Positions 7,307 through 54,109 of a stretch of 64,000 nt of DNA are shown here, one piece after another. Both the position numbers and the translations under genes were made by a program. The number at the start of each line of letters is the position of its first letter. Position 1 is the stretch's first letter. The stretch covers positions 87 to 64,086 of the IMG/VR virus record IMGVR_UViG_3300034069_001154; one strand, written 5' to 3'. Source of the stretch: a virus. The notes under the pieces were generated by a model that saw only the letters and a program-made list of their open reading frames with translations, had not been told where the DNA came from and made no database searches.

Positions 7307-9458
7307 CTCCTAGTTTCTCAAATTCATCATACAGGTTGATAATAGATTTACTGCCGTCATCATACTTTTCCAGGAACTTAACAAACATCCTCTGCACATC
7401 GTTCTTACATATCCTGTCGTTAAATTCTAATCCATCTCGCTTACATTTCCTATAGACCTGCATGATTCTCCTGAGTGATTTTACGAAGTTATAGTAATCG
7501 AACTTAACTTTGAATTTAAATCCTCTTGCATCCGTCACTACAAACCCTTCTATGTCACAATTATCTACACTATATAATGCGATAGTGTCCCACAGTGTAT
7601 CATCATCGTGGATAGTAAATTCATTCGGCGTTCTGATAGATGTATTCTTCTTAACTACCTCTTTGAACCTATCTGAAATTGTTTGATAGTCCGGTTCCAA
7701 GTTTAACTTATTATGTAGGATATCAAGAAGTACTACCTCTTCTTTTTCGTACTTAATAATATGAGGATCTTCTGTTGGGCTAATTACTTCAAATACGGCC
7801 GATGCATTCTCCTTCTTTAGTAAACTCTTAAGGAAGTCGGCATCATGTTTACTTACCGTCTCGCTAAATATCCTTTCAAATCTCTCAGCAAAAGGCCCAC
7901 TATCTGTTGTCTTAGATGCAAATACTACCTGTCCATCTACCACAGACATAATTCCTAAGTATCCATTTTCCTTGACTGCGACTTTAACTGGAAATACAAG
8001 TGATTTTTCTAAGTTTTCCACCCTAGTTTCTTTCTGTTCGCCTAGGTTAAAGAATTTGTCATAAGATCTCATCCTAACTTCACCAGTATTTTTATCTACA
8101 AAAAGTCCCCTTGCCTTGATTGTTGCTAGGTTCCACTTCTTGCCAATAAATGCATTCCTAGTAAAGTTCAGTGAGTACATATTATGCTTACAGCCCTTGA
8201 CATTAACCAGCCTACTATTCATCATCTTACAAACTTCAGGATCATCTACTTTATAGACTGCTTGTTGAAAATTATTTAGCCTCTCTGTGCTGAATACTTT
8301 ATTTTCAAACGATAGTAATTCTCTATCCCCTTCAGTTATAGATAGTACTTTCAGGTTTCCTCCAAATTCAACACTATCTTTTAAACAAATAGAGTGTTCT
8401 GTTGGGTCCGTATTTCTATGTCCATGTACTTGTATGAAATCTTGACATCTCCCTAGTAGGTAATTCTCTTCATAGATCTTATCAACTTCCATATCATATC
8501 CACCTACTCCTTTTATCATATTAATTGTTGGGATAGTGGTTAAGCTAGGAACTGCAGTAAGACCTCCATGTGTAACTAGGTATTTCTGTCCCCTATATAC
8601 AAAAGCGAAACATTGACGTAGCTTGTTGTATATTTCTTTTAGAATCTTTACTACCTGATTTCTTGGGACTGATTTTTCTATTTCTTCTAGTGTTTCTTTA
8701 AAATCACTAGAGGTTATATCCTGTCCATTTATGAGTTTCCATATATGCTTTTCGTGATTACCTTCTAATAGTATTACATTGCTATCTTTATGGTGCCTTA
8801 CTAGAAAATCATACATCTCTTTATTTTCAATTCCCCTATCAAAGTAGTCTCCAACAAATACATACAAGATATCAGGATCCAATGTTTCACCTACTGCCTC
8901 TTTTAGACAAGTATAGCAACCATGAATATCTCCGATTATCTTTACTTCTTTATAGTCTGATACATCCGTGACATAGTAGTTTATTATTTCATCAATACTA
9001 CTTATCTGTTTAAACCGGTTTGATAATTTATTTGTCTGTAATATCTCAAAGGCCCTAATTATTTCAGAATCTGGTACTCGTCTTATTGGGTCACGCAGTA
9101 AGTTTCTCTCTAGGCACTCTTCTAATGTTGCCTCTATGTTGAGTTGGTAGCAGTTATATCTATATTTATCTGCTAGTTCCAAATACTTAGACACTGCCTT
9201 ACTTGTTTTATGGGTTGCATCAATTACTGTAAAATCACCACACGTCATACGAACCTCTAACATCCTGTGCAGTGTATTCCAGACCTCTCTATCAGACCTT
9301 GCACTTATTGACATACTACCATCTTCCGTCATGCTGGGTGAATGGAGCATCAACCTAATCTCGTCTGCAGATAGTGTGTAGTCTGTTAAGTTATTGTTTT
9401 TGATGAAGGTAGATTTTCCACTACCCACACAACCTCTTAAGATCAATAAAGTTCTCAT
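7293..9458 (-). CDS. pnkp: trifunctional polynucleotide kinase / metallophosphatase / RNA ligase (Pnkp-like RNA repair enzyme)
   Basis: P-loop GCVGSGKS; phosphoesterase motifs GDIHG, GDYFDRG, GNHE, HGH; ligase motifs KENGYLG, EGFVV, KVK. Confidence 0.88.
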   Translation of the reverse strand: MRTLLILRGCVGSGKSTFIKNNNLTDYTLSADEIRLMLHSPSMTEDGSMSISARSDREVWNTLHRMLEVRMTCGDFTVIDATHKTSKAVSKYLELADKYRYNCYQLNIEATLEECLERNLLRDPIRRVPDSEIIRAFEILQTNKLSNRFKQISSIDEIINYYVTDVSDYKEVKIIGDIHGCYTCLKEAVGETLDPDILYVFVGDYFDRGIENKEMYDFLVRHHKDSNVILLEGNHEKHIWKLINGQDITSSDFKETLEEIEKSVPRNQVVKILKEIYNKLRQCFAFVYRGQKYLVTHGGLTAVPSLTTIPTINMIKGVGGYDMEVDKIYEENYLLGRCQDFIQVHGHRNTDPTEHSICLKDSVEFGGNLKVLSITEGDRELLSFENKVFSTERLNNFQQAVYKVDDPEVCKMMNSRLVNVKGCKHNMYSLNFTRNAFIGKKWNLATIKARGLFVDKNTGEVRMRSYDKFFNLGEQKETRVENLEKSLVFPVKVAVKENGYLGIMSVVDGQVVFASKTTDSGPFAERFERIFSETVSKHDADFLKSLLKKENASAVFEVISPTEDPHIIKYEKEEVVLLDILHNKLNLEPDYQTISDRFKEVVKKNTSIRTPNEFTIHDDDTLWDTIALYSVDNCDIEGFVVTDARGFKFKVKFDYYNFVKSLRRIMQVYRKCKRDGLEFNDRICKNDVQRMFVKFLEKYDDGSKSIINLYDEFEKLGDDEQ

Positions 9459-9473
9459 ATTTTAATTTTGTTT

Positions 9474-9911
9474 TTAAATTTCATGATCATATCCATACTC
9501 ACGACTTCCTAAGGTACTTTCATCAATTGCCAGTCCCTTGTCAATAAGTCCTCGTGTATCAAAGAATCTACTACACAGCCAATCATGTTTTTCTTGACTA
9601 TCCATTTGTAGTATATCATCTCTTGTTGCTGTCTTGTCACCACTGTACTCCCTATAGTCAATCAAGTCACGTTCTTCTATGTCTTCCAGCTTTTTGAGAA
9701 TAGGTCGTACATGCTCAATACTCACATACTCATCATCCCCAAGAAATCCACACATTGCCAGAACATCTTTTGCTTGATTTGTGTGATTATAGATCGGTTG
9801 TACATAGACTCTGGTTAATGTATACCTAATTTCACTAACTTCTACCTTGAGTCCGAAACACAATCTACTAGTTATATCTCGGACTAGTTCTATTTTTTCT
9901 TTTTCGTTCAT
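9474..9911 (-). CDS. hypothetical protein
   Basis: 145 aa ORF in the minus-strand operon. Confidence 0.7.
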   Translation of the reverse strand: MNEKEKIELVRDITSRLCFGLKVEVSEIRYTLTRVYVQPIYNHTNQAKDVLAMCGFLGDDEYVSIEHVRPILKKLEDIEERDLIDYREYSGDKTATRDDILQMDSQEKHDWLCSRFFDTRGLIDKGLAIDESTLGSREYGYDHEI

Positions 9912-10350
9912 ACTTACAAATTGCTTCTATTATATTTTTTCTAACATTAGCTCTATACGCTTGATATCCGCCTGTATAGTCGATTATGTAATTACTAGAA
10001 CACCATACTATATCGAGCTTAGTCTGTTTCTGTTCTGTTAGTTCTTCCCAGTCAAACTCGTAATGTAGCAAATAGGCGGTCGGGTAGTCTGTATTAGCTG
10101 ATTCATCTTGTACTGAGAATAAGAAATCGTTATCGTTCAGGTTAAAAATACAACCACTAGTACATACCCACTCATCGGGCCCTGCAATAATGTGTAAGTA
10201 GCCTGATTTTACTGCTTTTTTGCCGTTGATAATTTCTGCCCTAACCGTATACCAGGCTGAGAGGTTTGGATCTGCATTATCACCCACTAATCTACAGGCT
10301 GAAAAACTAGATTCACCGTCTCTTGTTATCTTAAGAACTATACTGCTCAT
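9868..10350 (-). CDS. hypothetical protein, paralog family 1
   Basis: Tandem duplicate of 10357-10827 (LKITR..ESSFS.CR, KSGYL, YLLHYEFDW, LD.VWCSS). Confidence 0.8.
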   Translation of the reverse strand: MSSIVLKITRDGESSFSACRLVGDNADPNLSAWYTVRAEIINGKKAVKSGYLHIIAGPDEWVCTSGCIFNLNDNDFLFSVQDESANTDYPTAYLLHYEFDWEELTEQKQTKLDIVWCSSNYIIDYTGGYQAYRANVRKNIIEAICKYERKRKNRTSPRYN

Positions 10351-46038: not shown

Positions 46039-46039
46039 A

Positions 46040-46085
46040 GCAGAAAAACCCTGGGGAGAAAATCCTCGGGGTAATTTTTTTTTGC
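46040..46085 (+). terminator. intrinsic terminator after clpC
   Basis: ACCCTGGGG..CCTCGGGGT hairpin plus T-tract. Confidence 0.65.
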
Positions 46086-46109
46086 ACATTTTCTTTATGT
46101 TGCAAAAAA

Positions 46110-46440
46110 ACATAAAGCTAAGCCTCTGGAGCGTAGCGGAGGGCAAACTTGAGGTAAGTATGTTACTTCTGAATTGACGAATGACATGAAGTGGAGCGTC
46201 AGCGGAACGGGAATGGAATGAGGAAACAGAAGAAGTTCCATGTCAAAGAGAACTAGCAAAATGATCAGTAAAAGAGATACCTCAGATCGCTTCGCTCCCC
46301 TCGGCATCACTGATCATTTCACTATGCGGCTTCGCCTTAGAGGGACTGAAGAAGAGATTATGATTTTTATGACTGACCGAATTCCGAGATTGGAGCGGAG
46401 CGAAAATCGAGGGAATGAGTGGCAGTTCCATTACCAAAAT
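46110..46440. repeat. GC-rich hairpin cluster with GAGCG-N-AGCG motifs; putative origin or protein-binding array 2
   Basis: TGGAGCGTAGCGGA, GTGGAGCGTCAGCGGAA, TCGCTTCGCTCC, GCGGCTTCGCC, TTGGAGCGGAGCGAA, mostly within inverted repeats (TGACATG/CATGTCA, ATGATCAGT/ACTGATCAT). Confidence 0.6.
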
Positions 46441-46543
46441 TTTATAATATCTTAGCTTTTATATACCTAATTACATACATAATAGTAAATATACATGTAA
46501 CATTTTTTATGTGATATTATCTATTACTTAGCAATTATATACT

Positions 46544-46666
46544 TAATTACATAGTATAATGTGCAATATATAATGTAATAAATCTTATAAAATCCTGCAC
46601 AAAAAATTAAAGGGATATAAGATATTATATGTATATTATATGGGTAATTACATACTATAATGTGCA
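46544..46666. repeat. 22-bp direct repeat pair in a very AT-rich tract
   Basis: TAATTACATAGTATAATGTGCA (46544-46565) and TAATTACATACTATAATGTGCA (46645-46666). Confidence 0.7.
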
Positions 46667-46821
46667 TTTTTGTAGTTTCGAAGAAATAGAAGACTTATTA
46701 TTGAGAACATAGCTTCAGCACTATGGGACGACAGTATGGAGTCTCATGTGTGCGAAGCTTAGCTTGGGGTGAAAGCCCAAGTTAGAAGAGAGAGTATAAC
46801 TAAATTAAAATTATTAATAAT

Positions 46822-48846
46822 ATGAATGTAATTAAGATTGACGTACCTGCAGGATGTAGGTACGTATCAGAAATTGAGGGATTCAAGATTTACGATTTTC
46901 CGCACATCTTGAATAAACAAATCCCTGGTTGCGGATTTACGGAGTACTGTATTGATCCTCTCAAGAACAGTGAGAATGTTGTCTTATGTAGTCCTAGGAA
47001 GATCTTGCTACAAAATAAACATGGTCAACATCCAGACACAACTTACTTAGTGGTTAATGATTATGAAAGTGATCCAAGTACAGACAAGGATCTCACGAAG
47101 CAAGAGAAGTCTAAGTATGATCCGTATAAGGTGGTAGATCCAGAGAAAGTGCGGAAAGAGAAGAAGGACAAGGAGGATTTCTTCAAGCGATTAACAAAGG
47201 AGATAATCGGTTACATAACAGACTGCAGATTCAATAATAAGCCAGTTAAGATCCTGGTCACTTATGATTCATTCAGAATAGTAAAGGATATCATACAGCA
47301 CAATTTTAATGACATGGATTATAGGGTTGTGATTGATGAGTTTCAAAGTATCTTCACTGATAGTAAGTTTAAGTCCGACACAGAGCTTCAATTTGTTAAG
47401 TCAGTGCAAGGTATTCAAAAGGTATGTTATGTCAGTGCTACTCCTATGATGATAAAGTACCTAGAGATGTTAGAGGAATTCAAGAACCTCCCTTACTATG
47501 AGCTAGACTGGGAAGCACTTGAACCTGGTAGAGTTAGTAGGCCGACTCTGTACGTTAAAAATCTAGTATCGGTCTATACTGAGGTTAAGCCAATTATTAA
47601 GTCTTATCTGAAGGGGAAGTTTGAGTATAGGTATGTAAAGCAAGAAGATGGTAGTGTAGAAAAGATAGTATCAAAGGAAGCAGTATTTTATGTTAATTCA
47701 GTCAATAACATCACTAGTATTGTCAAAAGGGCAGGCCTAACTCCAGAACAAGTGAATATCCTCGTAGCTAATACTCCTGATAATGTTAATAAAATACATA
47801 AGAGACTCGGTAGAAAGTATGATATAGGTACAGTTCCTTTGAGAGATGAGCCAAGGAAGATGTTTACTTTTTGCACTAGAACTGTATATCTTGGAGCTGA
47901 CTTTTATAGTGATAACGCCCGATCTTTTGTGGTTAGTGATGCGAATATAGATACCCTGGCGGTTGATATTACGCTTGATCTCCCACAAATACTAGGGCGT
48001 CAAAGATTAAAAGAGAACCCTTGGAGGAATGAAGCAACTCTATTCTTTAGGCCTATCAAAGGTGCTAATAAGAAGCCAGAGGAAGAATTCAATAAAAAGA
48101 TAGCAAAGAAAACAGAGAAGACAAAGAGGTTATTAGGTGTATTTGATAAGAGTGATCCAAAAGAGCAGGAGGATTTATCTGAAGTTTTTCAAGAAAATGC
48201 TAAGTACGGGCATTATAAAAGGAACTATGTAGCTGTTAATAAAGTGTTCATAGCAGGGGGTGTCAAGTTGGTACCAGTCTTTAATAATCTCGTCAAGGTA
48301 TCTGAATTGAGGGCTTATGAAATGCAACAGACCGATTATGCTAACAGGTTTACAGTTTTCAGTGCGATCAAGAAAATAGGTACTGCAGACATTGATAACG
48401 AGGTTGTTAAAGAGGTACTGAATAAGATAGATTCAATAAAGGATAGGAGAGAAAAGTTTAAGTATCTCTGTGAACAATCAGAGCTTCCAGAGTTTAATAT
48501 TATCTTAGACAACTTATCTAATACGAGATTTAAGGAATACATAGATGCACTAGGTGTTGATAAGTGTAAGGCGATGAGTTACAAGTTCGGTGATATGGAT
48601 AAGAAGCTGAACGTAGAGAGCTTTGATAAGGATAAACTAAAAGAGGCAGTACAATCTAAGTTCGACCTTAACGTGTTTTATACAAATCCAGCTATAAAGT
48701 CAACACTATCAGAAGTATATAAGGATATTGATTACAGAGCTAAGGCAAAAGCTAACGATATTGAGAATTATTTTGAGTCCTCTTCCTGTATGATGACGAT
48801 TAATGGGAAGAGAATGCATGGTGTTAAATTAGTTAATAAAAAATAA
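46822..48846 (+). CDS. SF2 helicase-like protein with degenerate Walker A, paralog 2
   Basis: IPGCGFT, VIDEFQ, VSATP, FCTRTVYLGADF, QILGRQR; long blocks identical to 3682-5715. Confidence 0.7.
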   Translation: MNVIKIDVPAGCRYVSEIEGFKIYDFPHILNKQIPGCGFTEYCIDPLKNSENVVLCSPRKILLQNKHGQHPDTTYLVVNDYESDPSTDKDLTKQEKSKYDPYKVVDPEKVRKEKKDKEDFFKRLTKEIIGYITDCRFNNKPVKILVTYDSFRIVKDIIQHNFNDMDYRVVIDEFQSIFTDSKFKSDTELQFVKSVQGIQKVCYVSATPMMIKYLEMLEEFKNLPYYELDWEALEPGRVSRPTLYVKNLVSVYTEVKPIIKSYLKGKFEYRYVKQEDGSVEKIVSKEAVFYVNSVNNITSIVKRAGLTPEQVNILVANTPDNVNKIHKRLGRKYDIGTVPLRDEPRKMFTFCTRTVYLGADFYSDNARSFVVSDANIDTLAVDITLDLPQILGRQRLKENPWRNEATLFFRPIKGANKKPEEEFNKKIAKKTEKTKRLLGVFDKSDPKEQEDLSEVFQENAKYGHYKRNYVAVNKVFIAGGVKLVPVFNNLVKVSELRAYEMQQTDYANRFTVFSAIKKIGTADIDNEVVKEVLNKIDSIKDRREKFKYLCEQSELPEFNIILDNLSNTRFKEYIDALGVDKCKAMSYKFGDMDKKLNVESFDKDKLKEAVQSKFDLNVFYTNPAIKSTLSEVYKDIDYRAKAKANDIENYFESSSCMMTINGKRMHGVKLVNKK

Positions 48847-48851
48847 TAGAT

Positions 48852-49814
48852 ATGATCTACATAATTGAGATGTTGGCGACTAGGGACTTAAATGATCCTA
48901 TTCGTATTTTCAAGATTGGATATACTTGTTATTTTGATAGAAGGATGTCTGAGTATATGACTTGCAATGCATCTTTTATAGTATATAAGAAACTAGAAGG
49001 TGATGAGTTTGACATGACGTGTGAGAAAATGATTCATCGGTACATAAAGGATAAGAAGTATAATGGTAGACCTGAAATGTTTATTAAAGATGATGAATTA
49101 GTTGAGTTAATAGACAGGATCAACACTAGGGAGGATATACTAAGTCTTAAAGGTACTGCTAAGGTGAGTCATACAATGGTCAACAAGTACTTTGGTGAAT
49201 ATAGAGGAGTTATTACAAAGAACTGGGATCTTATTCAGACAGTGTTTAATAATGAGTCGAGGAATTTAGTACAGGAGATGTTAGAGTCGAGTGAGACAAA
49301 CTTATTCAGTTATGTAAAAGAAAATTATGGTATAGACCTAGTAGACTTTACAGATGAAGAAAAGAAAGTGGTCAGTGAGTTCTTGGGTCATCTCAGTACT
49401 ATAAAAGATAGAAGGGAAAAATTCAAATATCTCTGTAAACAATCTAACCACCCTAACTTTGATGCACTCTTAGACTGTGTACCCTATAAGAGATTCAAGG
49501 AGTATGTAGTTAGATTAGGAATTGATAAGTGTAAGGCAATGAGTTACAAATTTGGAGATATGGATAGAAAACTCAACATAACTGATTTTGACAGGGATAG
49601 ACTAAGACCTTTTATTTACAATATGTTTGATGTTGGAAAATCATATTCAAAGGCTGATATAAAAGCAACACTGGCTGGTCTATATAAGAGCATTGATTAT
49701 AGGGCAACTGCAAAGGCTAGTGATCTTAGAAATTACTTTGATATAAAATTGTGTATTTTCACAGGTGAGAGTGGAAAGAAGATAAATGGTTTTAAAATTT
49801 TATCTAAGAAGTGA
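48852..49814 (+). CDS. T5orf172/GIY-YIG-like nuclease fused to the C-terminal domain of the helicase-like proteins
   Basis: MIYIIEM..FKIGYT..RR..CEKMIH..GRPEMF N-terminus; last 145 or so aa match the C-terminus of 46822-48846. Confidence 0.65.
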   Translation: MIYIIEMLATRDLNDPIRIFKIGYTCYFDRRMSEYMTCNASFIVYKKLEGDEFDMTCEKMIHRYIKDKKYNGRPEMFIKDDELVELIDRINTREDILSLKGTAKVSHTMVNKYFGEYRGVITKNWDLIQTVFNNESRNLVQEMLESSETNLFSYVKENYGIDLVDFTDEEKKVVSEFLGHLSTIKDRREKFKYLCKQSNHPNFDALLDCVPYKRFKEYVVRLGIDKCKAMSYKFGDMDRKLNITDFDRDRLRPFIYNMFDVGKSYSKADIKATLAGLYKSIDYRATAKASDLRNYFDIKLCIFTGESGKKINGFKILSKK

Positions 49815-49970: not shown

Positions 49971-52900
49971 ATGAACAGAAGAATTGTATTAGTAGATCAA
50001 GAAGAGACTCCGACCTATGCGCGTTATTATGGCTCAGGTTTTTCGGAGGTTTACACACTTCAGAGCCTGTATGGTATGAGTGAGGCTGAGCGTCTTGCTA
50101 AGTTATCATTAGGTGAATCTGACGGTGTATTAATTGTTGGTGGTAAGCCTTTTAAGTATTTGAAGTCTTACTATCATTTTGGTGTAAGAAATGAGACTTA
50201 TACTGATTGTGCTATGTTACCTCGTCTTAGTATGGAGGGAGGTGCATTTTCAAAGGTAGTAGTAGAGTATCCAAGCCAAGAGGACATTGATTATTTCTTA
50301 AGTCCTGAGTTTGTGAGGCCTGTTAGTTTTTCAGGTTTCCAGCACAAGATTATTCATGATTATCAAGGTGCACTTAGGTTTCTTGAGTACTTAGATAGTC
50401 TTCCTCTTGAGCAGCACTATGGAATGGACTATGAGGCGAGTGGTATGCCGTTAGATAAGCAGTTCTGGTTAAGTGGTGTTGCGATTTGTACGGAGAGATT
50501 TGGCGGTTTTATTAGTCTTACTGATATTCGCCATTCTTTTCCAGAGGGTTCACCAGAGTATAGTAATCTTTTAAAGTTACTGGGTGAATTTTTCAAGAAG
50601 AGGATGGATCATATTTGGACTTACAATATGCAGTATGAGTGGCAGGTAAGTCATAGGGTACTTGGTGTTGACTTATATAATCTTTGTGATGCTAGTGCTG
50701 TTAATGTAATGGATGGGTTTCACCTTAAGAAATTTTCTCTTAAGTGGACAGCTCAGAGAGTCCTAGGCGTGAATGTATGGGATAGTGAGTTTGACAGAAT
50801 TAGTGAGCTCATAGATTCAGGCTTATATGAGATAGTTGGTAAGCTTAAGAAGGATCAACGTAAGGTATTCAAGGTAGATAGGTCAAGCTTTTACAATACG
50901 CCTGAGTGGAAAGAGCTTAGTAAGAGATATCCAGACTACATAGGGGAGTTCAATAATCTTATGTTAGAGTATTGGGGTTATCCTTTTATGTGTGTGCCTA
51001 GTGAAATTCTTGGCCATTATTGTTGTCTTGACTCATTCTATACTCTCCTTATTGCAATGTCTAGGTTTGATACTTATTCAGAGGATTGTTGGAAGGTAAA
51101 CTTAGACAACATTAGGCTTGGTGCTAGGTTAATGGGTAGTGGTCTTTATATTGATGAGCCATTCAGACAGTCCTATGAAAAGTACTGTCATGAGCAAATG
51201 GCCTGGAGTATTACATATTGTGCTCAGGCTAGGTGTTATATTAAGATGCAGGCTCATTCAAAACAGGCGGCATCATTAAAGCGTTATCATCCTGTGGCAG
51301 TTAAACTACTAGAACAGGGTAAGTTTCATAATGGAGATACGGTAGAGATAGTAAAGGACCTGCTACTTGAGAACTTAGACAGTATGGATTCTTATAGTAC
51401 TGGCCTGAATGAGGGTGGTATTTTGATTAAGTATGGTCCTAAGTTTGCAAATGGTTTCTTAGATATTGTCAGGGGTGCGATGTCTGAGGTAAAGATGGCG
51501 ACAAAGATAGATGAGACAGTTAAGAGAAAGAAAAAATTAGTAGGTCTCATTGCCGATAAGTTTAGTGATCTTGTTGGTATTAAGTCGCTTGAATTAGACC
51601 CCGCGAAACACCCAACGAAATTCAGGAAGCATGTAGAGCTGGAGAAATATTTGTACTATAAGAAGGCGTATGCAGAATTAGAGAAGGTGAAGAAGCAGTT
51701 AAGTGATATTCATAATGTGCCGGATACTATCTATGCATTTGGTGAGAAGCGTCCGTTGGTAGAATATGCGGGGTATGTTAGCGACAATTATTTCAAGTGT
51801 AAATCGCCAATTGAGAATGATCAGATTGCATTTGAACTAGCTACCTTGTATAGACCTCAGACATGTTACTTAGCGGCTATGATAGAAAGTACCCAACAAC
51901 TAGAGGGAACAGATAAGTTTTACAGTGATCGAGGCATTACTGACATTAACGTTGGGTATAATGAATTTTTTGAACAGTGGCGGTCATTTGTTGAGAAAGA
52001 TCCAGGGGTAAGTTTTAAGTATCCAGATAAGGTATTTAATATTGCGCTTACATCTTGGCAGGCTACTAAGAAACTTGATAATATGACTGACGGTGTTAAG
52101 GAGATATGGACAAACTTGAGAGGATTTCAAGCGCAGACAACATATTTCCCGACTCTCAATGAACAATATACTGGTTATGAAGAGCATTTTGAACCTACTG
52201 ACATGGATGATGATTTTTACTTCATGCGGAAAATGGTATTGAATTACTTAATATTCAAGAAGTATTCAAAACTAGATTCAACATATGTAGGCTCAGATGG
52301 TATGTTTCATAAGACTGGTAAGTGGGTAATAGAGGGTCAAGATCATATACCAATTAGGGAAGCGGACGAGAATGAACCTGGTGCTGTCTGGAAAGTATTT
52401 ACAAAATATGAAGTACTGAGTAAGAGTAGTAAAAGGTGGTCAAGTCCTTTTCACACTATGAGAAATTGTAGCCTTAGGTAGTAATACTTAAGTGAAAAGG
52501 CTGTGAACTAGTAAAATGCTAGGTGTGAGAATGTAGGAATTCTTGCTAACGAGGGAGGCTAAGTTATGAGAGTAATATGCTAATCTCGTGCCAAGTCTAA
52601 GTAGGGTAACCGCTTAGAAAGGTGTAACGACTATCCTGTTGTGGGGAGTAGGGGTCAAGTGAAATTCTTGGCTTCGAAGTGCAGCCTGTCCAGTAATGGA
52701 TAATGAAATAGTCTTGCCTTATTGAAAAATAAAGGAATAACAGAATTAGCCATGGAGATTGTAAGGATGTATTATGTCCTCCGCCTTCATGGGACTCTAA
52801 TGGTAATATAATATATGGAGGTTCTTCACAAATTTTGACTTATTTTGATATAAGTTCGGCGGAGGTAAAATCAGCGGGGTATTCCAGTGGTGACCCTAAG

Positions 52901-54109
52901 TTGATAGCAAAATTTGAGGAAGGATCTGACATCTACATATATTCTGCGAAGCTCTACTTAGGTGAGAGTGAGTGGGATAACTTAAGCGATAAGATGAAGA
53001 AGAAATGGAGGAAGCGTTTTAAGACTATCTTCCTTGGTGTCTTGTATGGCCTAGGTAAGAATTCATTAGCGGAGCGACTTGAATGTAGTCTGAATGAGGC
53101 TGATGATATTATACAAGGTCTTTACAATTCATTCCCAAAGCTTAGAGAGTATGTAGCAAAGCAAGGTTCTTATCCAATGACTCACGATGGTTATATCAAT
53201 ACATTCTTAGGAGATAAACTAAGATTGATTGAGTATACTGATTACCTACCAAAGGCAACAACAGATCGTGAGAGAGGAAATATTATTGCAAGAATAGAAA
53301 GACTAGGTACCAACTTGCCAATTCAGGGAGGTACAAGTTCAATTATGGCCTGTGGTTTCTATAATAACATTAGAAAATCACTAGAAGAAGGTTGGAAACA
53401 GCCACTTCAGCCAATTATCGTGGTGCATTGACAGAATGGTGCACGTTAAACCTACTAAATTGCTGGGACGTCTTGTTAAGCTGTTAGTACTTAGTGTAAT
53501 AACCTAACAGATAGAGATAATCAGCAGTGAGTGTAATAGCTCATTCAACGACTATCGAAAGGAACAGATCATGTTAACCGAGTAGAGTAGAGTATAAACG
53601 TTTGATATTCGAAACAGTAGGCAGTATAAGAACTGAAGATATAGTCTGGTCTAGCTCGAGAGGGTTAGCAGTGGGGTTTTATCTCACGGCTTAGGTGTAG
53701 TGAACCTAGGTGAACAATTACGGATTCTAATACTAACTATATACCAGTTGAGAAGGTATTTGAGATTAGAAGATTTTACGATAAGAACTATACGGATTTC
53801 TGTGCAACAATAGGTCCAAAGATTAGATTACTTTTTGACTTGCTAGTGGGTTATAGTTATGAGGAGGCGAACGAACTTAAGACAATTGATGAGAATACGA
53901 TTGAGTTTAAGGGAAGTGCGAAGTCTATCTTAAAGCTGTATGACAAGATTATGAATTGTCCACTAGATGTTGAGTGCGATACCAGCAGAGATGATATTGT
54001 GGGGGCTCAAAAGTTAGTAAGCAGCCCATACTATAGATTCATTATCGAGGGCGGTTGTAATATGTCAAAAGATTTAAGCAAGATAAAGGTTAGATTCCAC
54101 AAGAAGTAA
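49971..54109 (+). CDS. polA: family A DNA polymerase with 3'-5' exonuclease; exons 49971-52459, 52744-53428, 53723-54109 (spliced 1186 aa)
   Basis: ExoI MDYEASG, ExoIII HYCCLD; motif A YFDISSAE, motif B RKRFKTIFLGVLYG; motif C VH|DS restored only after splicing; exons sum to 3561 nt, in frame. Confidence 0.92.
52460..52743 (+). ncRNA. group I intron 1 in polA (284 nt, no ORF)
   Basis: 5' exon ends in U with a U.G pair in P1 (CUAU|GA-GAAA-UUGUAG); R GTAACGACTA, S GAAATAGTCT; terminal G; splicing gives RWSSPFHT-I-ISHGD. Confidence 0.85.
53429..53722 (+). ncRNA. group I intron 2 in polA (294 nt, no ORF)
   Basis: P1 GTGCAT/GTGCAC with U.G at the splice site; P AAATTGCTGGGA, Q AATCAGCAG, R TTCAACGACTA, S AAGATATAGTCT; P10 AGAAT/ATTCT; terminal G. 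Confidence 0.92.

Follow-up and report, generated by a model that had tools for sequence, protein, structure and literature searches.

A GIY-YIG nuclease gene that reads into a copy of its neighbor's 3′ tail is probably a homing-type parasite of a helicase-like gene family in giant gut phages

Why should a nuclease and a helicase-like protein encoded side by side in a viral genome end in the same protein sequence? The two genes lie in a window (the whole stretch of DNA analyzed) of 64,000 nucleotides, positions 87 to 64,086 of IMG/VR record IMGVR_UViG_3300034069_001154, a record estimated to be 19% complete. As close relatives of the window proteins are found on contigs of ∼340 kb, the window represents part of a giant (jumbo) phage. 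The helicase-like gene hel2 (46822-48846, plus strand, 674 amino acids [aa]) is followed, 5 nt after its stop codon and on the same strand, by a nuclease gene encoding 320 aa (48852-49814), with polA directly downstream, and a paralogue, hel1 (3682-5715, plus strand, 677 aa), has no nuclease gene after it. An earlier note on this DNA, made from its letters, suggested that the common domain directs both proteins to the same sites as parts of a two-component initiation, recombination or homing system. Our comparative analyses point elsewhere: the 48852-49814 gene is probably a free-standing homing-type endonuclease gene that parasitizes a multi-copy family of helicase-like genes, and the common tail reflects how it sits in its host gene.

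At the sequence level the similarity of the tails is far beyond chance. In BLASTP, hel2 and the 320-aa protein align with an E value of 5e-51 and 44% identity over 223 aa (aa 463-674 of hel2 against aa 101-320), and the motifs IKDRREKFKYLC and KCKAMSYKFGDMD, quoted in the earlier note, fall inside this alignment. Identity measured in 30-column windows is 60-80% in alignment columns 91-150, corresponding to about aa 545-604 of hel2, and 20-57% outside them. The common C-terminal region of ∼145 aa that had been claimed is thus real: ∼150 aa are strongly shared, and weaker similarity, including a conserved VFNN motif, brings the total to ∼220 aa. In hel2 the tail comprises aa 456-674 plus the stop codon (48187..48846, plus strand; tail-profile positions 2-217), as delimited by BLASTP and alignments, with the strongly shared part at about aa 527-674 (48400-48846, plus strand). 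The diverged version noticed at the end of hel1 (aa ∼457-677, 5050-5715, plus strand; located by BLASTP and the tail profile) is also present, matching the 320-aa protein with an E value of 3e-32 and 35% identity over 197 aa. The hel1 and hel2 proteins are 60% identical over their full length but only ∼40% identical in the last 170 residues. The description of the DNA as near-identical in places was, however, too strong, as blastn aligns the hel2 and nuclease genes with 68% identity over 343 nt and the best 60-nt window reaches 80%. A recent tandem duplication was ruled out as the origin of the shared domain, the two tails of one locus being only 63-68% identical in DNA.

The helicase-like family is present in multiple copies in phage contigs of 200-400 kb. 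A pattern search of IMG/VR located 439 helicase loci, nearly all of them on contigs of 100-400 kb, with a single contig often carrying several; individual loci are referred to below by L numbers. Among 80 of these loci, a nuclease gene follows the helicase tail in 23, beginning 3-15 bp beyond the helicase stop codon. The IMG/VR record G001, which has 362,675 bp and is 92% complete, encodes ten full-length helicase paralogues (L092-L101) with 59-85% aa identity, spaced 20-55 kb apart around the genome, and a nuclease-plus-tail gene follows one of the ten. In one locus, L055, the nuclease is joined to the helicase sequence from position ∼392 onward. A tandem arrangement occurs at L017 (1815-3751), where two nuclease-plus-tail genes, with tails 52% identical to each other, lie behind a single helicase.

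What is gained or lost can be read from orthologous loci of which one has the nuclease gene and the other does not. In four such pairs (L030/L031, L035/L036, L037/L046 and L038/L052) the flanks are 95-99.6% identical and the alleles differ by an insert of ∼1052 bp that corresponds to the whole nuclease gene. The insert junction falls within the final 4-5 codons of the helicase gene, where both tails have the 15-nt string GGTTATGAATTATTA in common. Owing to this position, the helicase of the occupied allele terminates in KRKD and a stop codon, and the original ending now belongs to the nuclease. The element-free alleles L030, L035, L037 and L038 retain the upstream-type tail except for the last few codons or the last ∼100 nt.

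Occupancy is also reciprocal between paralogous loci. On one contig, locus A is empty (L030) and locus B is occupied (L040), while on another locus A is occupied (L048) and locus B is empty (L028). L048 at locus A and L040 at locus B have the same module of nuclease and linker, with 100% identity along ∼570 bp that begin shortly ahead of the ATG and end in the first codons of the tail. Identity is 56-80% in the flanking tails and 66% in the helicase cores. Because this module lacks a stop codon, it always reads into a tail. The sporadic presence of the nuclease at orthologous loci, together with an identical module at two paralogous ones, indicates that "homing", among the terms offered in the earlier note, is the right word for the nuclease as far as the sequences can tell.

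The tails themselves are exchanged between genes and between phages. Nuclease-borne tails are typically 55-78% identical to the tail of the neighboring helicase. Several of them are nevertheless 98-100% identical at the protein level to the helicase tail of a nuclease-free allele of the same locus in another phage: L031, L032 and L048 match L086, L044 and L045 match L034, L059 matches L070, and L043 matches L067. The DNA homology of such matched nuclease and helicase tails extends into the downstream flank, and in L031/L086, L044/L034, L059/L070 and L043/L067 the downstream tail copy is the native-like one and the upstream copy is divergent. L086 and L031 have flanks with 97-99% identity around helicase genes with only 68%, implying that whole helicase alleles have been exchanged at the site. 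DNA identity is 95-100% between the nuclease tail of L046 and the helicase tail of L031. Further polymorphism is seen at L070, where the helicase of the nuclease-free allele is followed by ∼1.4 kb of differing DNA (7007-8451) and that of the occupied L059 by ∼80 bp (8048-8125); judged from the sequences, this is another insertion-deletion difference at the same recombination hot spot.

Exchange and decay can both be followed in the clade of the window. Its members carry three tail alleles in different combinations: the window has tail alpha on the helicase and gamma on the nuclease, L012 has alpha on the helicase and beta on the nuclease, and L004 has beta on the helicase and alpha on the nuclease. 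Tail alpha on the L004 nuclease and on the helicases of the window and L012 shows 88-92% DNA identity. Synonymous divergence (dS) is ∼1.0 in the tail, above the 0.26-0.85 of the rest of the nuclease gene, which points to mosaicism. In L004 the nuclease gene has a GAG-to-TAG change at codon 142, and in L010 and L012 a GAA-to-TAA change at codon 49. The two nonsense mutations are independent, each a single G-to-T change from the Glu codon found in the window. Recoding of stop codons in these relatives was ruled out, as one in-frame stop is TAG and the other TAA and the window uses the three stop codons about equally. Several protein-database clusters of 177-260 aa appear, by sequence, to be truncated nuclease calls.

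The 320-aa protein has a clear modular layout. A GIY-YIG domain of the T5orf172/MUG113 type (aa 1-100; 48852..49151, plus strand), supported by Pfam, an AlphaFold2 (AF2) model, Foldseek and VIA-align, is followed by a helical linker (aa 101-171; 49152..49364, plus strand), which is seen in the AF2 model and assigned to the mobile module by its identity between loci in relatives. The helicase-type tail occupies aa 172-320 plus the stop codon (49365..49814, plus strand; tail-profile positions 54-217). In Pfam, MUG113 (PF13455) scores 28.2 bits against a cut-off of 22.3 over aa 20-84, and T5orf172 (PF10544) scores 20.3 bits against a cut-off of 20 over aa 2-75. The AF2 model, built with a 141-row alignment, has a predicted local distance difference test score (pLDDT) of 93; a single-sequence run reached a pLDDT of 42 and was unusable. 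The model shows a mixed alpha/beta domain at aa 1-100, helices at aa 103-245 and a winged-helix topology at aa 245-320. Foldseek matched it to MUG113/T5orf172 proteins in BFVD with E values of 1e-6 to 1e-3 and a probability of 1.0, and VIA-align matched aa 1-100 to the GIY-YIG domains of Slx1 and At-HIGLE with Z scores of 4.0-4.5. The earlier assignment of a GIY-YIG-like nuclease is thus borne out by family scores above both cut-offs and by fold matches. Among 37 nuclease homologues, Y3, K21, G23, R31 and E58 are invariant, and Y35, I22, N39 and H62 are retained in 34-36; these positions include candidates for the Tyr, Arg, Glu and Asn of the GIY-YIG catalytic set. The ratio of nonsynonymous to synonymous substitution rates (dN/dS) is 0.02-0.08 in the nuclease domain, 0.07-0.15 in the linker and 0.25-0.37 in the tail. 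The protein had no match by tblastn among 50,697 deposited phages, PHROGs and NCBIfam returned no informative family, sequence and profile searches of the Protein Data Bank (PDB) found no relative, and searches of the ESM Atlas gave unnamed viral clusters or weak matches only.

The predicted structure also suggests what the tail may do. Its last part (aa 245-320; 49584-49811, plus strand), delimited by the AF2 model and VIA-align, contains helices at 248-258, 267-280 and 289-294 and strands at 264-266, 296-304 and 310-319, in the order alpha1-beta1-alpha2-alpha3-beta2-beta3. VIA-align matches for this part are mostly winged helices: the DNA-binding domain of RFX (1dp7, Z score 6.6), RFX5 (5.6) and Nse1 (5.3), and in addition the C-terminal region of the NrS-1 primase-helicase (5.0), the DpnI winged helix (4.5), the origin-binding domain of phage P4 (4.4) and the winged-helix domain of MCM8, all of them below a Z score of 8, the level that VIA-align treats as safe. 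Lys or Arg is conserved throughout the family at positions 271, 288, 299, 309, 310 and 320 of the 320-aa protein. Based on the model, the shared tail probably ends in a winged-helix-like fold, and this predicted end, with its conserved basic residues, would suit nucleic-acid binding; a DNA-binding role was among those proposed for the shared domain in the earlier note.

To see what else carries this tail, a profile of three tails was run against 1.84 billion proteins, yielding 1067 representative clusters at E values of 1e-3 or below. The partner survey covered 200 proteins from the higher-ranked of these 1067 clusters. Among the 200, the N-terminal partner of the tail is a helicase core (whole or as gene fragments) or a GIY domain, and no partner of another kind was seen; the same domain architectures recur in other phages, a check that had been proposed earlier. 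A third class, of ten clusters of 464-611 aa, combines a GIY domain with helicase positions ∼252-454 and the tail. All 25 of the 25 nuclease-borne tails are in frame, in the same open reading frame (ORF) as the GIY domain, and the in-frame fusion recurs in several dozen protein clusters with three or more fusion registers. Because the registers vary, the nuclease module must have been joined in frame to helicase 3′ portions at several positions. In a tree of the tails, nuclease-borne and helicase-borne sequences are thoroughly interspersed: the hel2 tail nests within a clade of nuclease-borne tails, and the sister group of the hel1 tail consists of nuclease-borne tails from other phages (P0055, P0044 and P0045). 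At L009 (3333-5168), a 611-aa protein consists of a GIY domain, helicase positions ∼281-449 and the tail, with no recognizable helicase gene upstream; here, by sequence, a helicase paralogue seems to have lost its 5′ half to the nuclease module. In the window itself, a 145-aa ORF on the minus strand (9474-9911, in the frame 9477-9926) gives a weak partial match (E value of 2e-4) to tail-profile positions 141-189, which may mark a distant stand-alone relative of the tail or be due to chance.

These data suggest the following mechanism. The mobile unit would be the nuclease module of ∼0.5-0.6 kb, that is, the T5orf172/MUG113 GIY-YIG domain and helical linker without a stop codon of their own. 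Placed a few bases past the helicase stop, it reads in frame into a second copy of the helicase 3′ tail, composed of a helical subdomain and the putative winged-helix-like domain, so that the module is flanked by two diverged direct repeats of tail-coding DNA. Double-strand-break repair would use these repeats as homology arms, and the module could in this way be gained, be lost or hop from one paralogue to another, the nuclease presumably cutting module-free helicase alleles near the tail. The module contains no other candidate for a nucleic-acid-binding domain, from which we infer that the tail serves as such for the nuclease. Specifically, it has none of the Cys-rich zinc fingers that T5orf172 homing endonucleases usually carry (PMC10448857), and GIY-YIG homing enzymes normally rely on a separate DNA-binding domain (PMC2988022). 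The proposal that the domain is shared because both proteins were selected for a common target is less apt than an explanation from the position of the module in the helicase 3′ end and constant recombination between tails.

Several points weigh against this homing-type reading. The locus counts come from 80 of the 439 helicase loci and the frequencies are rough. The direction of the events is ambiguous, as nuclease-free alleles may equally be deletions produced by recombination between the two tails; the crossovers of such deletions would lie at the start of the tail (L034 and L070), near its end (L037) or at its very end (L030). A strict version, in which the foreign upstream tail travels with the module, fails for L048 and L040, the one locus pair in which co-travel was examined, their upstream tails being only 56-70% identical. 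The winged-helix match is moderate even at its best, and Foldseek found nothing in the PDB at E values of 1e-3 or below. Finally, constant conversion from helicase tails under selection could keep the nuclease-borne tail open without selection on that tail.

Among described systems, the closest arrangement is, by analogy, that of the mobile endonuclease ORFs (mORFs) of fungal mitochondria, known from atp6 of Allomyces macrogynus and from atp6, atp9, cox2 and nad3 of Glomus sp. (PMC3630166). A mORF lies at the 3′ end of its host gene between an inserted and a native C terminus, and the native copy matches element-free relatives (PMC3630166). The phage loci likewise have an endonuclease ORF at the host-gene 3′ end flanked by two diverged copies of C-terminal coding sequence, and in four allele pairs the downstream copy is near-identical (98-100%) to the element-free allele and the upstream copy divergent. 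The phage system differs in that the host is a helicase-like gene, the nuclease is of the T5orf172/MUG113 GIY-YIG type, and ten paralogues in a single genome form the target. In addition, the host gene does not lose its stop codon, translation of the nuclease ORF runs on into the downstream copy and thereby gives the nuclease protein the tail, and in the single locus pair compared the upstream tail was not inherited together with the module.

Two groups of phage homing endonucleases offer further parallels. In a survey of the T5orf172 family in ICP1 and other phages, 87% of the homing endonucleases carry CapR, DUF723 or DUF4397 zinc-finger domains (PMC10448857). The nuclease family, a position beside essential or replication genes, the exchange of modular DNA-binding regions by recombination and recombination between degenerate repeats are common to those enzymes and ours, but the only partner domain of the phage nuclease described here is its neighbor's tail; the words helicase, winged and jumbo appear nowhere in that paper. 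The Seg proteins of T4 (PMC2988022) have a similar build, with the GIY-YIG domain at the N terminus, the DNA-binding region at the C terminus and a linker between them, and their genes are likewise inserted between other genes with a sporadic distribution. Their DNA-binding region, however, is not known to be common to the flanking host gene, and no direct repeats of it surround them. In intronless homing and marker exclusion by Seg enzymes, flanking host sequence is co-converted (PMC2988022), and co-conversion of this kind would explain the swapped helicase alleles that are 68% identical between flanks of 97-99%.

A different precedent suggests that the nuclease might be a weapon. Odn (Gp88) of phage ICP1 is an origin-directed T5orf172 nuclease; it has 42% identity to a RepA_N domain and relies on this RepA-derived domain to cut the origin of the satellite PLE (PMC8263062). 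By analogy, the helicase tail of a rival phage would aim our nuclease at the sites which that helicase binds in competing genomes, for example the conserved noncoding region upstream of each helicase paralogue. In both nucleases a T5orf172 domain is joined to the relative of a domain from another protein, one of replication type for Odn and putatively so here, and our tails share 44-60% identity inside one genome and reach 100% across genomes. The borrowed domain of Odn, however, is N-terminal, comes from a hostile satellite and was shown to bind and direct cleavage of the origin; that of our nuclease is C-terminal, comes from the neighboring gene of the same phage lineage and has a putative role in binding. 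In keeping with a weapon are the nuclease tails that equal other phages' helicase tails (98-100%) and differ from their own neighbor's (only 55-78%), the winged-helix-like tail with origin-binding and helicase C-terminal domains (P4 alpha and NrS-1) among its matches, and the hairpins and long palindrome conserved in the upstream noncoding regions of helicase paralogues. But the high identity runs on uninterrupted into the downstream flank, as expected of recombination at the locus and not of the acquisition of a targeting domain, and this continuity leads us to favor plain recombination. Moreover, the instability of two highly similar tandem tails could alone explain why a nuclease differs from its own helicase in the tail, and in the window clade the nuclease genes bearing another phage's helicase tail (L004 and L012) are the ones with nonsense mutations. 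An Odn-like role is unlikely. A broader picture that draws on both ideas is speculative and likewise improbable: the roughly ten paralogues per genome, each preceded by conserved noncoding DNA with hairpins and a long AT-centered palindrome, would act at specific sites as initiator or remodeller modules, with winged-helix tails that set the DNA targets of each allele, and the stop-less module would use the tail both as portable homology arms, allowing it to hop whatever the flanks, and as a swappable targeting domain against rival helicase alleles, in an Odn-like arms race of giant phages fought by tail shuffling.

It is still less probable that the tail is a passive footprint, a leftover of insertion or duplication without a role in the nuclease that is kept open by gene conversion from helicase tails. 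Such a leftover would fit the repeated overwriting of nuclease tails by helicase tails and the excess of tail dN/dS over that of the nuclease domain. It would also fit the fungal mORFs, in which the native C terminus left downstream is often not even expressed (PMC3630166), and the existence of tail-less GIY-like genes near helicases. It would not account for a stop-less module that is in frame with the tail in all 25 nuclease genes and in several dozen clusters, in at least three registers; nor does the module offer another DNA-binding candidate, zinc finger or otherwise, to meet the usual need of GIY-YIG homing enzymes for a separate DNA-binding domain (PMC2988022). Least credible, and indeed very improbable, is an obligatory two-component system of co-adapted helicase and nuclease brought by the same domain to the same sites for replication initiation or recombination, a reading of the proposal in the earlier note: the genes are adjacent, on one strand, 5 nt apart and just upstream of polA, they have the tail in common, and a long repeat-rich noncoding region precedes hel2, but the nuclease is present at only 23 of 80 helicase loci and, in a genome that is 92% complete, beside one of ten paralogues, comes and goes between orthologous loci, is nonsense-mutated in relatives, and usually carries a different tail allele from the neighboring helicase, tails being freely swapped.

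The tail-less GIY genes deserve mention in their own right. In L004, an extra gene for a 226-aa GIY-like protein without a tail (6543-7223) lies between the nuclease gene and polA; the window has no such gene, and the protein is 31% identical to aa 1-186 of the window nuclease. Tail-less GIY genes also occur ∼0.8-1.2 kb downstream of helicases at L056, L057, L060, L064, L068 and L077. Within the window, polA contains two group I introns (52464-52734 and 53407-53668), which score 54.1 and 50.4 bits in Rfam against a gathering score of 50.

The description of hel2 as helicase-like held in part. Its putative superfamily 2 (SF2) core (aa 1-455; 46822..48186, plus strand), recognized by family motifs, contains DEFQ (D172, Q175), SAT (S205-T207) and QxxGRQR (Q389, G392, R393, R395), all invariant in an alignment of 35 family sequences. 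Motifs II, III and VI are intact, but motif I has no Lys and the Pfam DEAD model gives an E value of 0.15, below its cut-off. In place of the GxGKT Walker A motif, the family has an invariant K32..G36-C37-G38-x-T40 (hel2 aa 32-40; window 46915-46941), from which the canonical Lys is absent; motifs II, III and VI are preserved across the family despite this Lys-less motif I. Representatives of clusters formed at 50% identity are 39-47% identical to one another. Searches of Pfam, NCBIfam, PHROGs and the PDB by sequence assigned hel2 to no curated family or solved structure, and tblastn against the 50,697 deposited phages yielded only six weak records for the helicase-like protein; a relative in Psychrobacter phage D'Alembert, 25% identical, is annotated as "DEAD-like helicase".

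In the window, hel2 is preceded by a long noncoding region (46039..46821, no strand assigned) with direct and inverted repeats. In G001, the 350-620 bp upstream of each paralogue (L092-L101) are conserved between paralogues, by up to 85-90%, and contain GC-rich hairpins, e.g., GACACCCC...GGGGTGGTGTC, and a ∼230-bp palindrome with an AT-rich center; nothing is conserved downstream. With conservation confined to the upstream side, the repeated unit looks like a noncoding region plus a helicase, which could function as an origin or promoter module or could itself be mobile. Rfam identified no family in ten helicase-upstream regions, and blastn with those of the window found no DNA similarity in other clades beyond close relatives.

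The present analysis contributes the reciprocal occupancy, the boundaries of the module, the tail swaps in the window clade and the ten-paralogue context. For annotators the locus is a warning that domains "shared" by a nuclease and its neighbor may reflect insertion architecture and not functional partnership. If the tail sets cleavage specificity, the natural tail swaps would be a ready panel for studies of GIY-YIG nuclease retargeting. More generally, these natural allele series illustrate a way of life that needs neither intron nor intein: a homing endonuclease can reside at the 3′ end of a host gene when its nuclease module, lacking a stop codon, takes the duplicated tail of that gene as its own C terminus and probably also as recombination arms. 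This reading would carry over to giant gut phages, and to the T5orf172 family, a mechanism described in fungal mitochondria, and would explain the rapid allele swapping in a large, uncharacterized family of helicase-like proteins comprising at least 1067 clusters at 50% identity.

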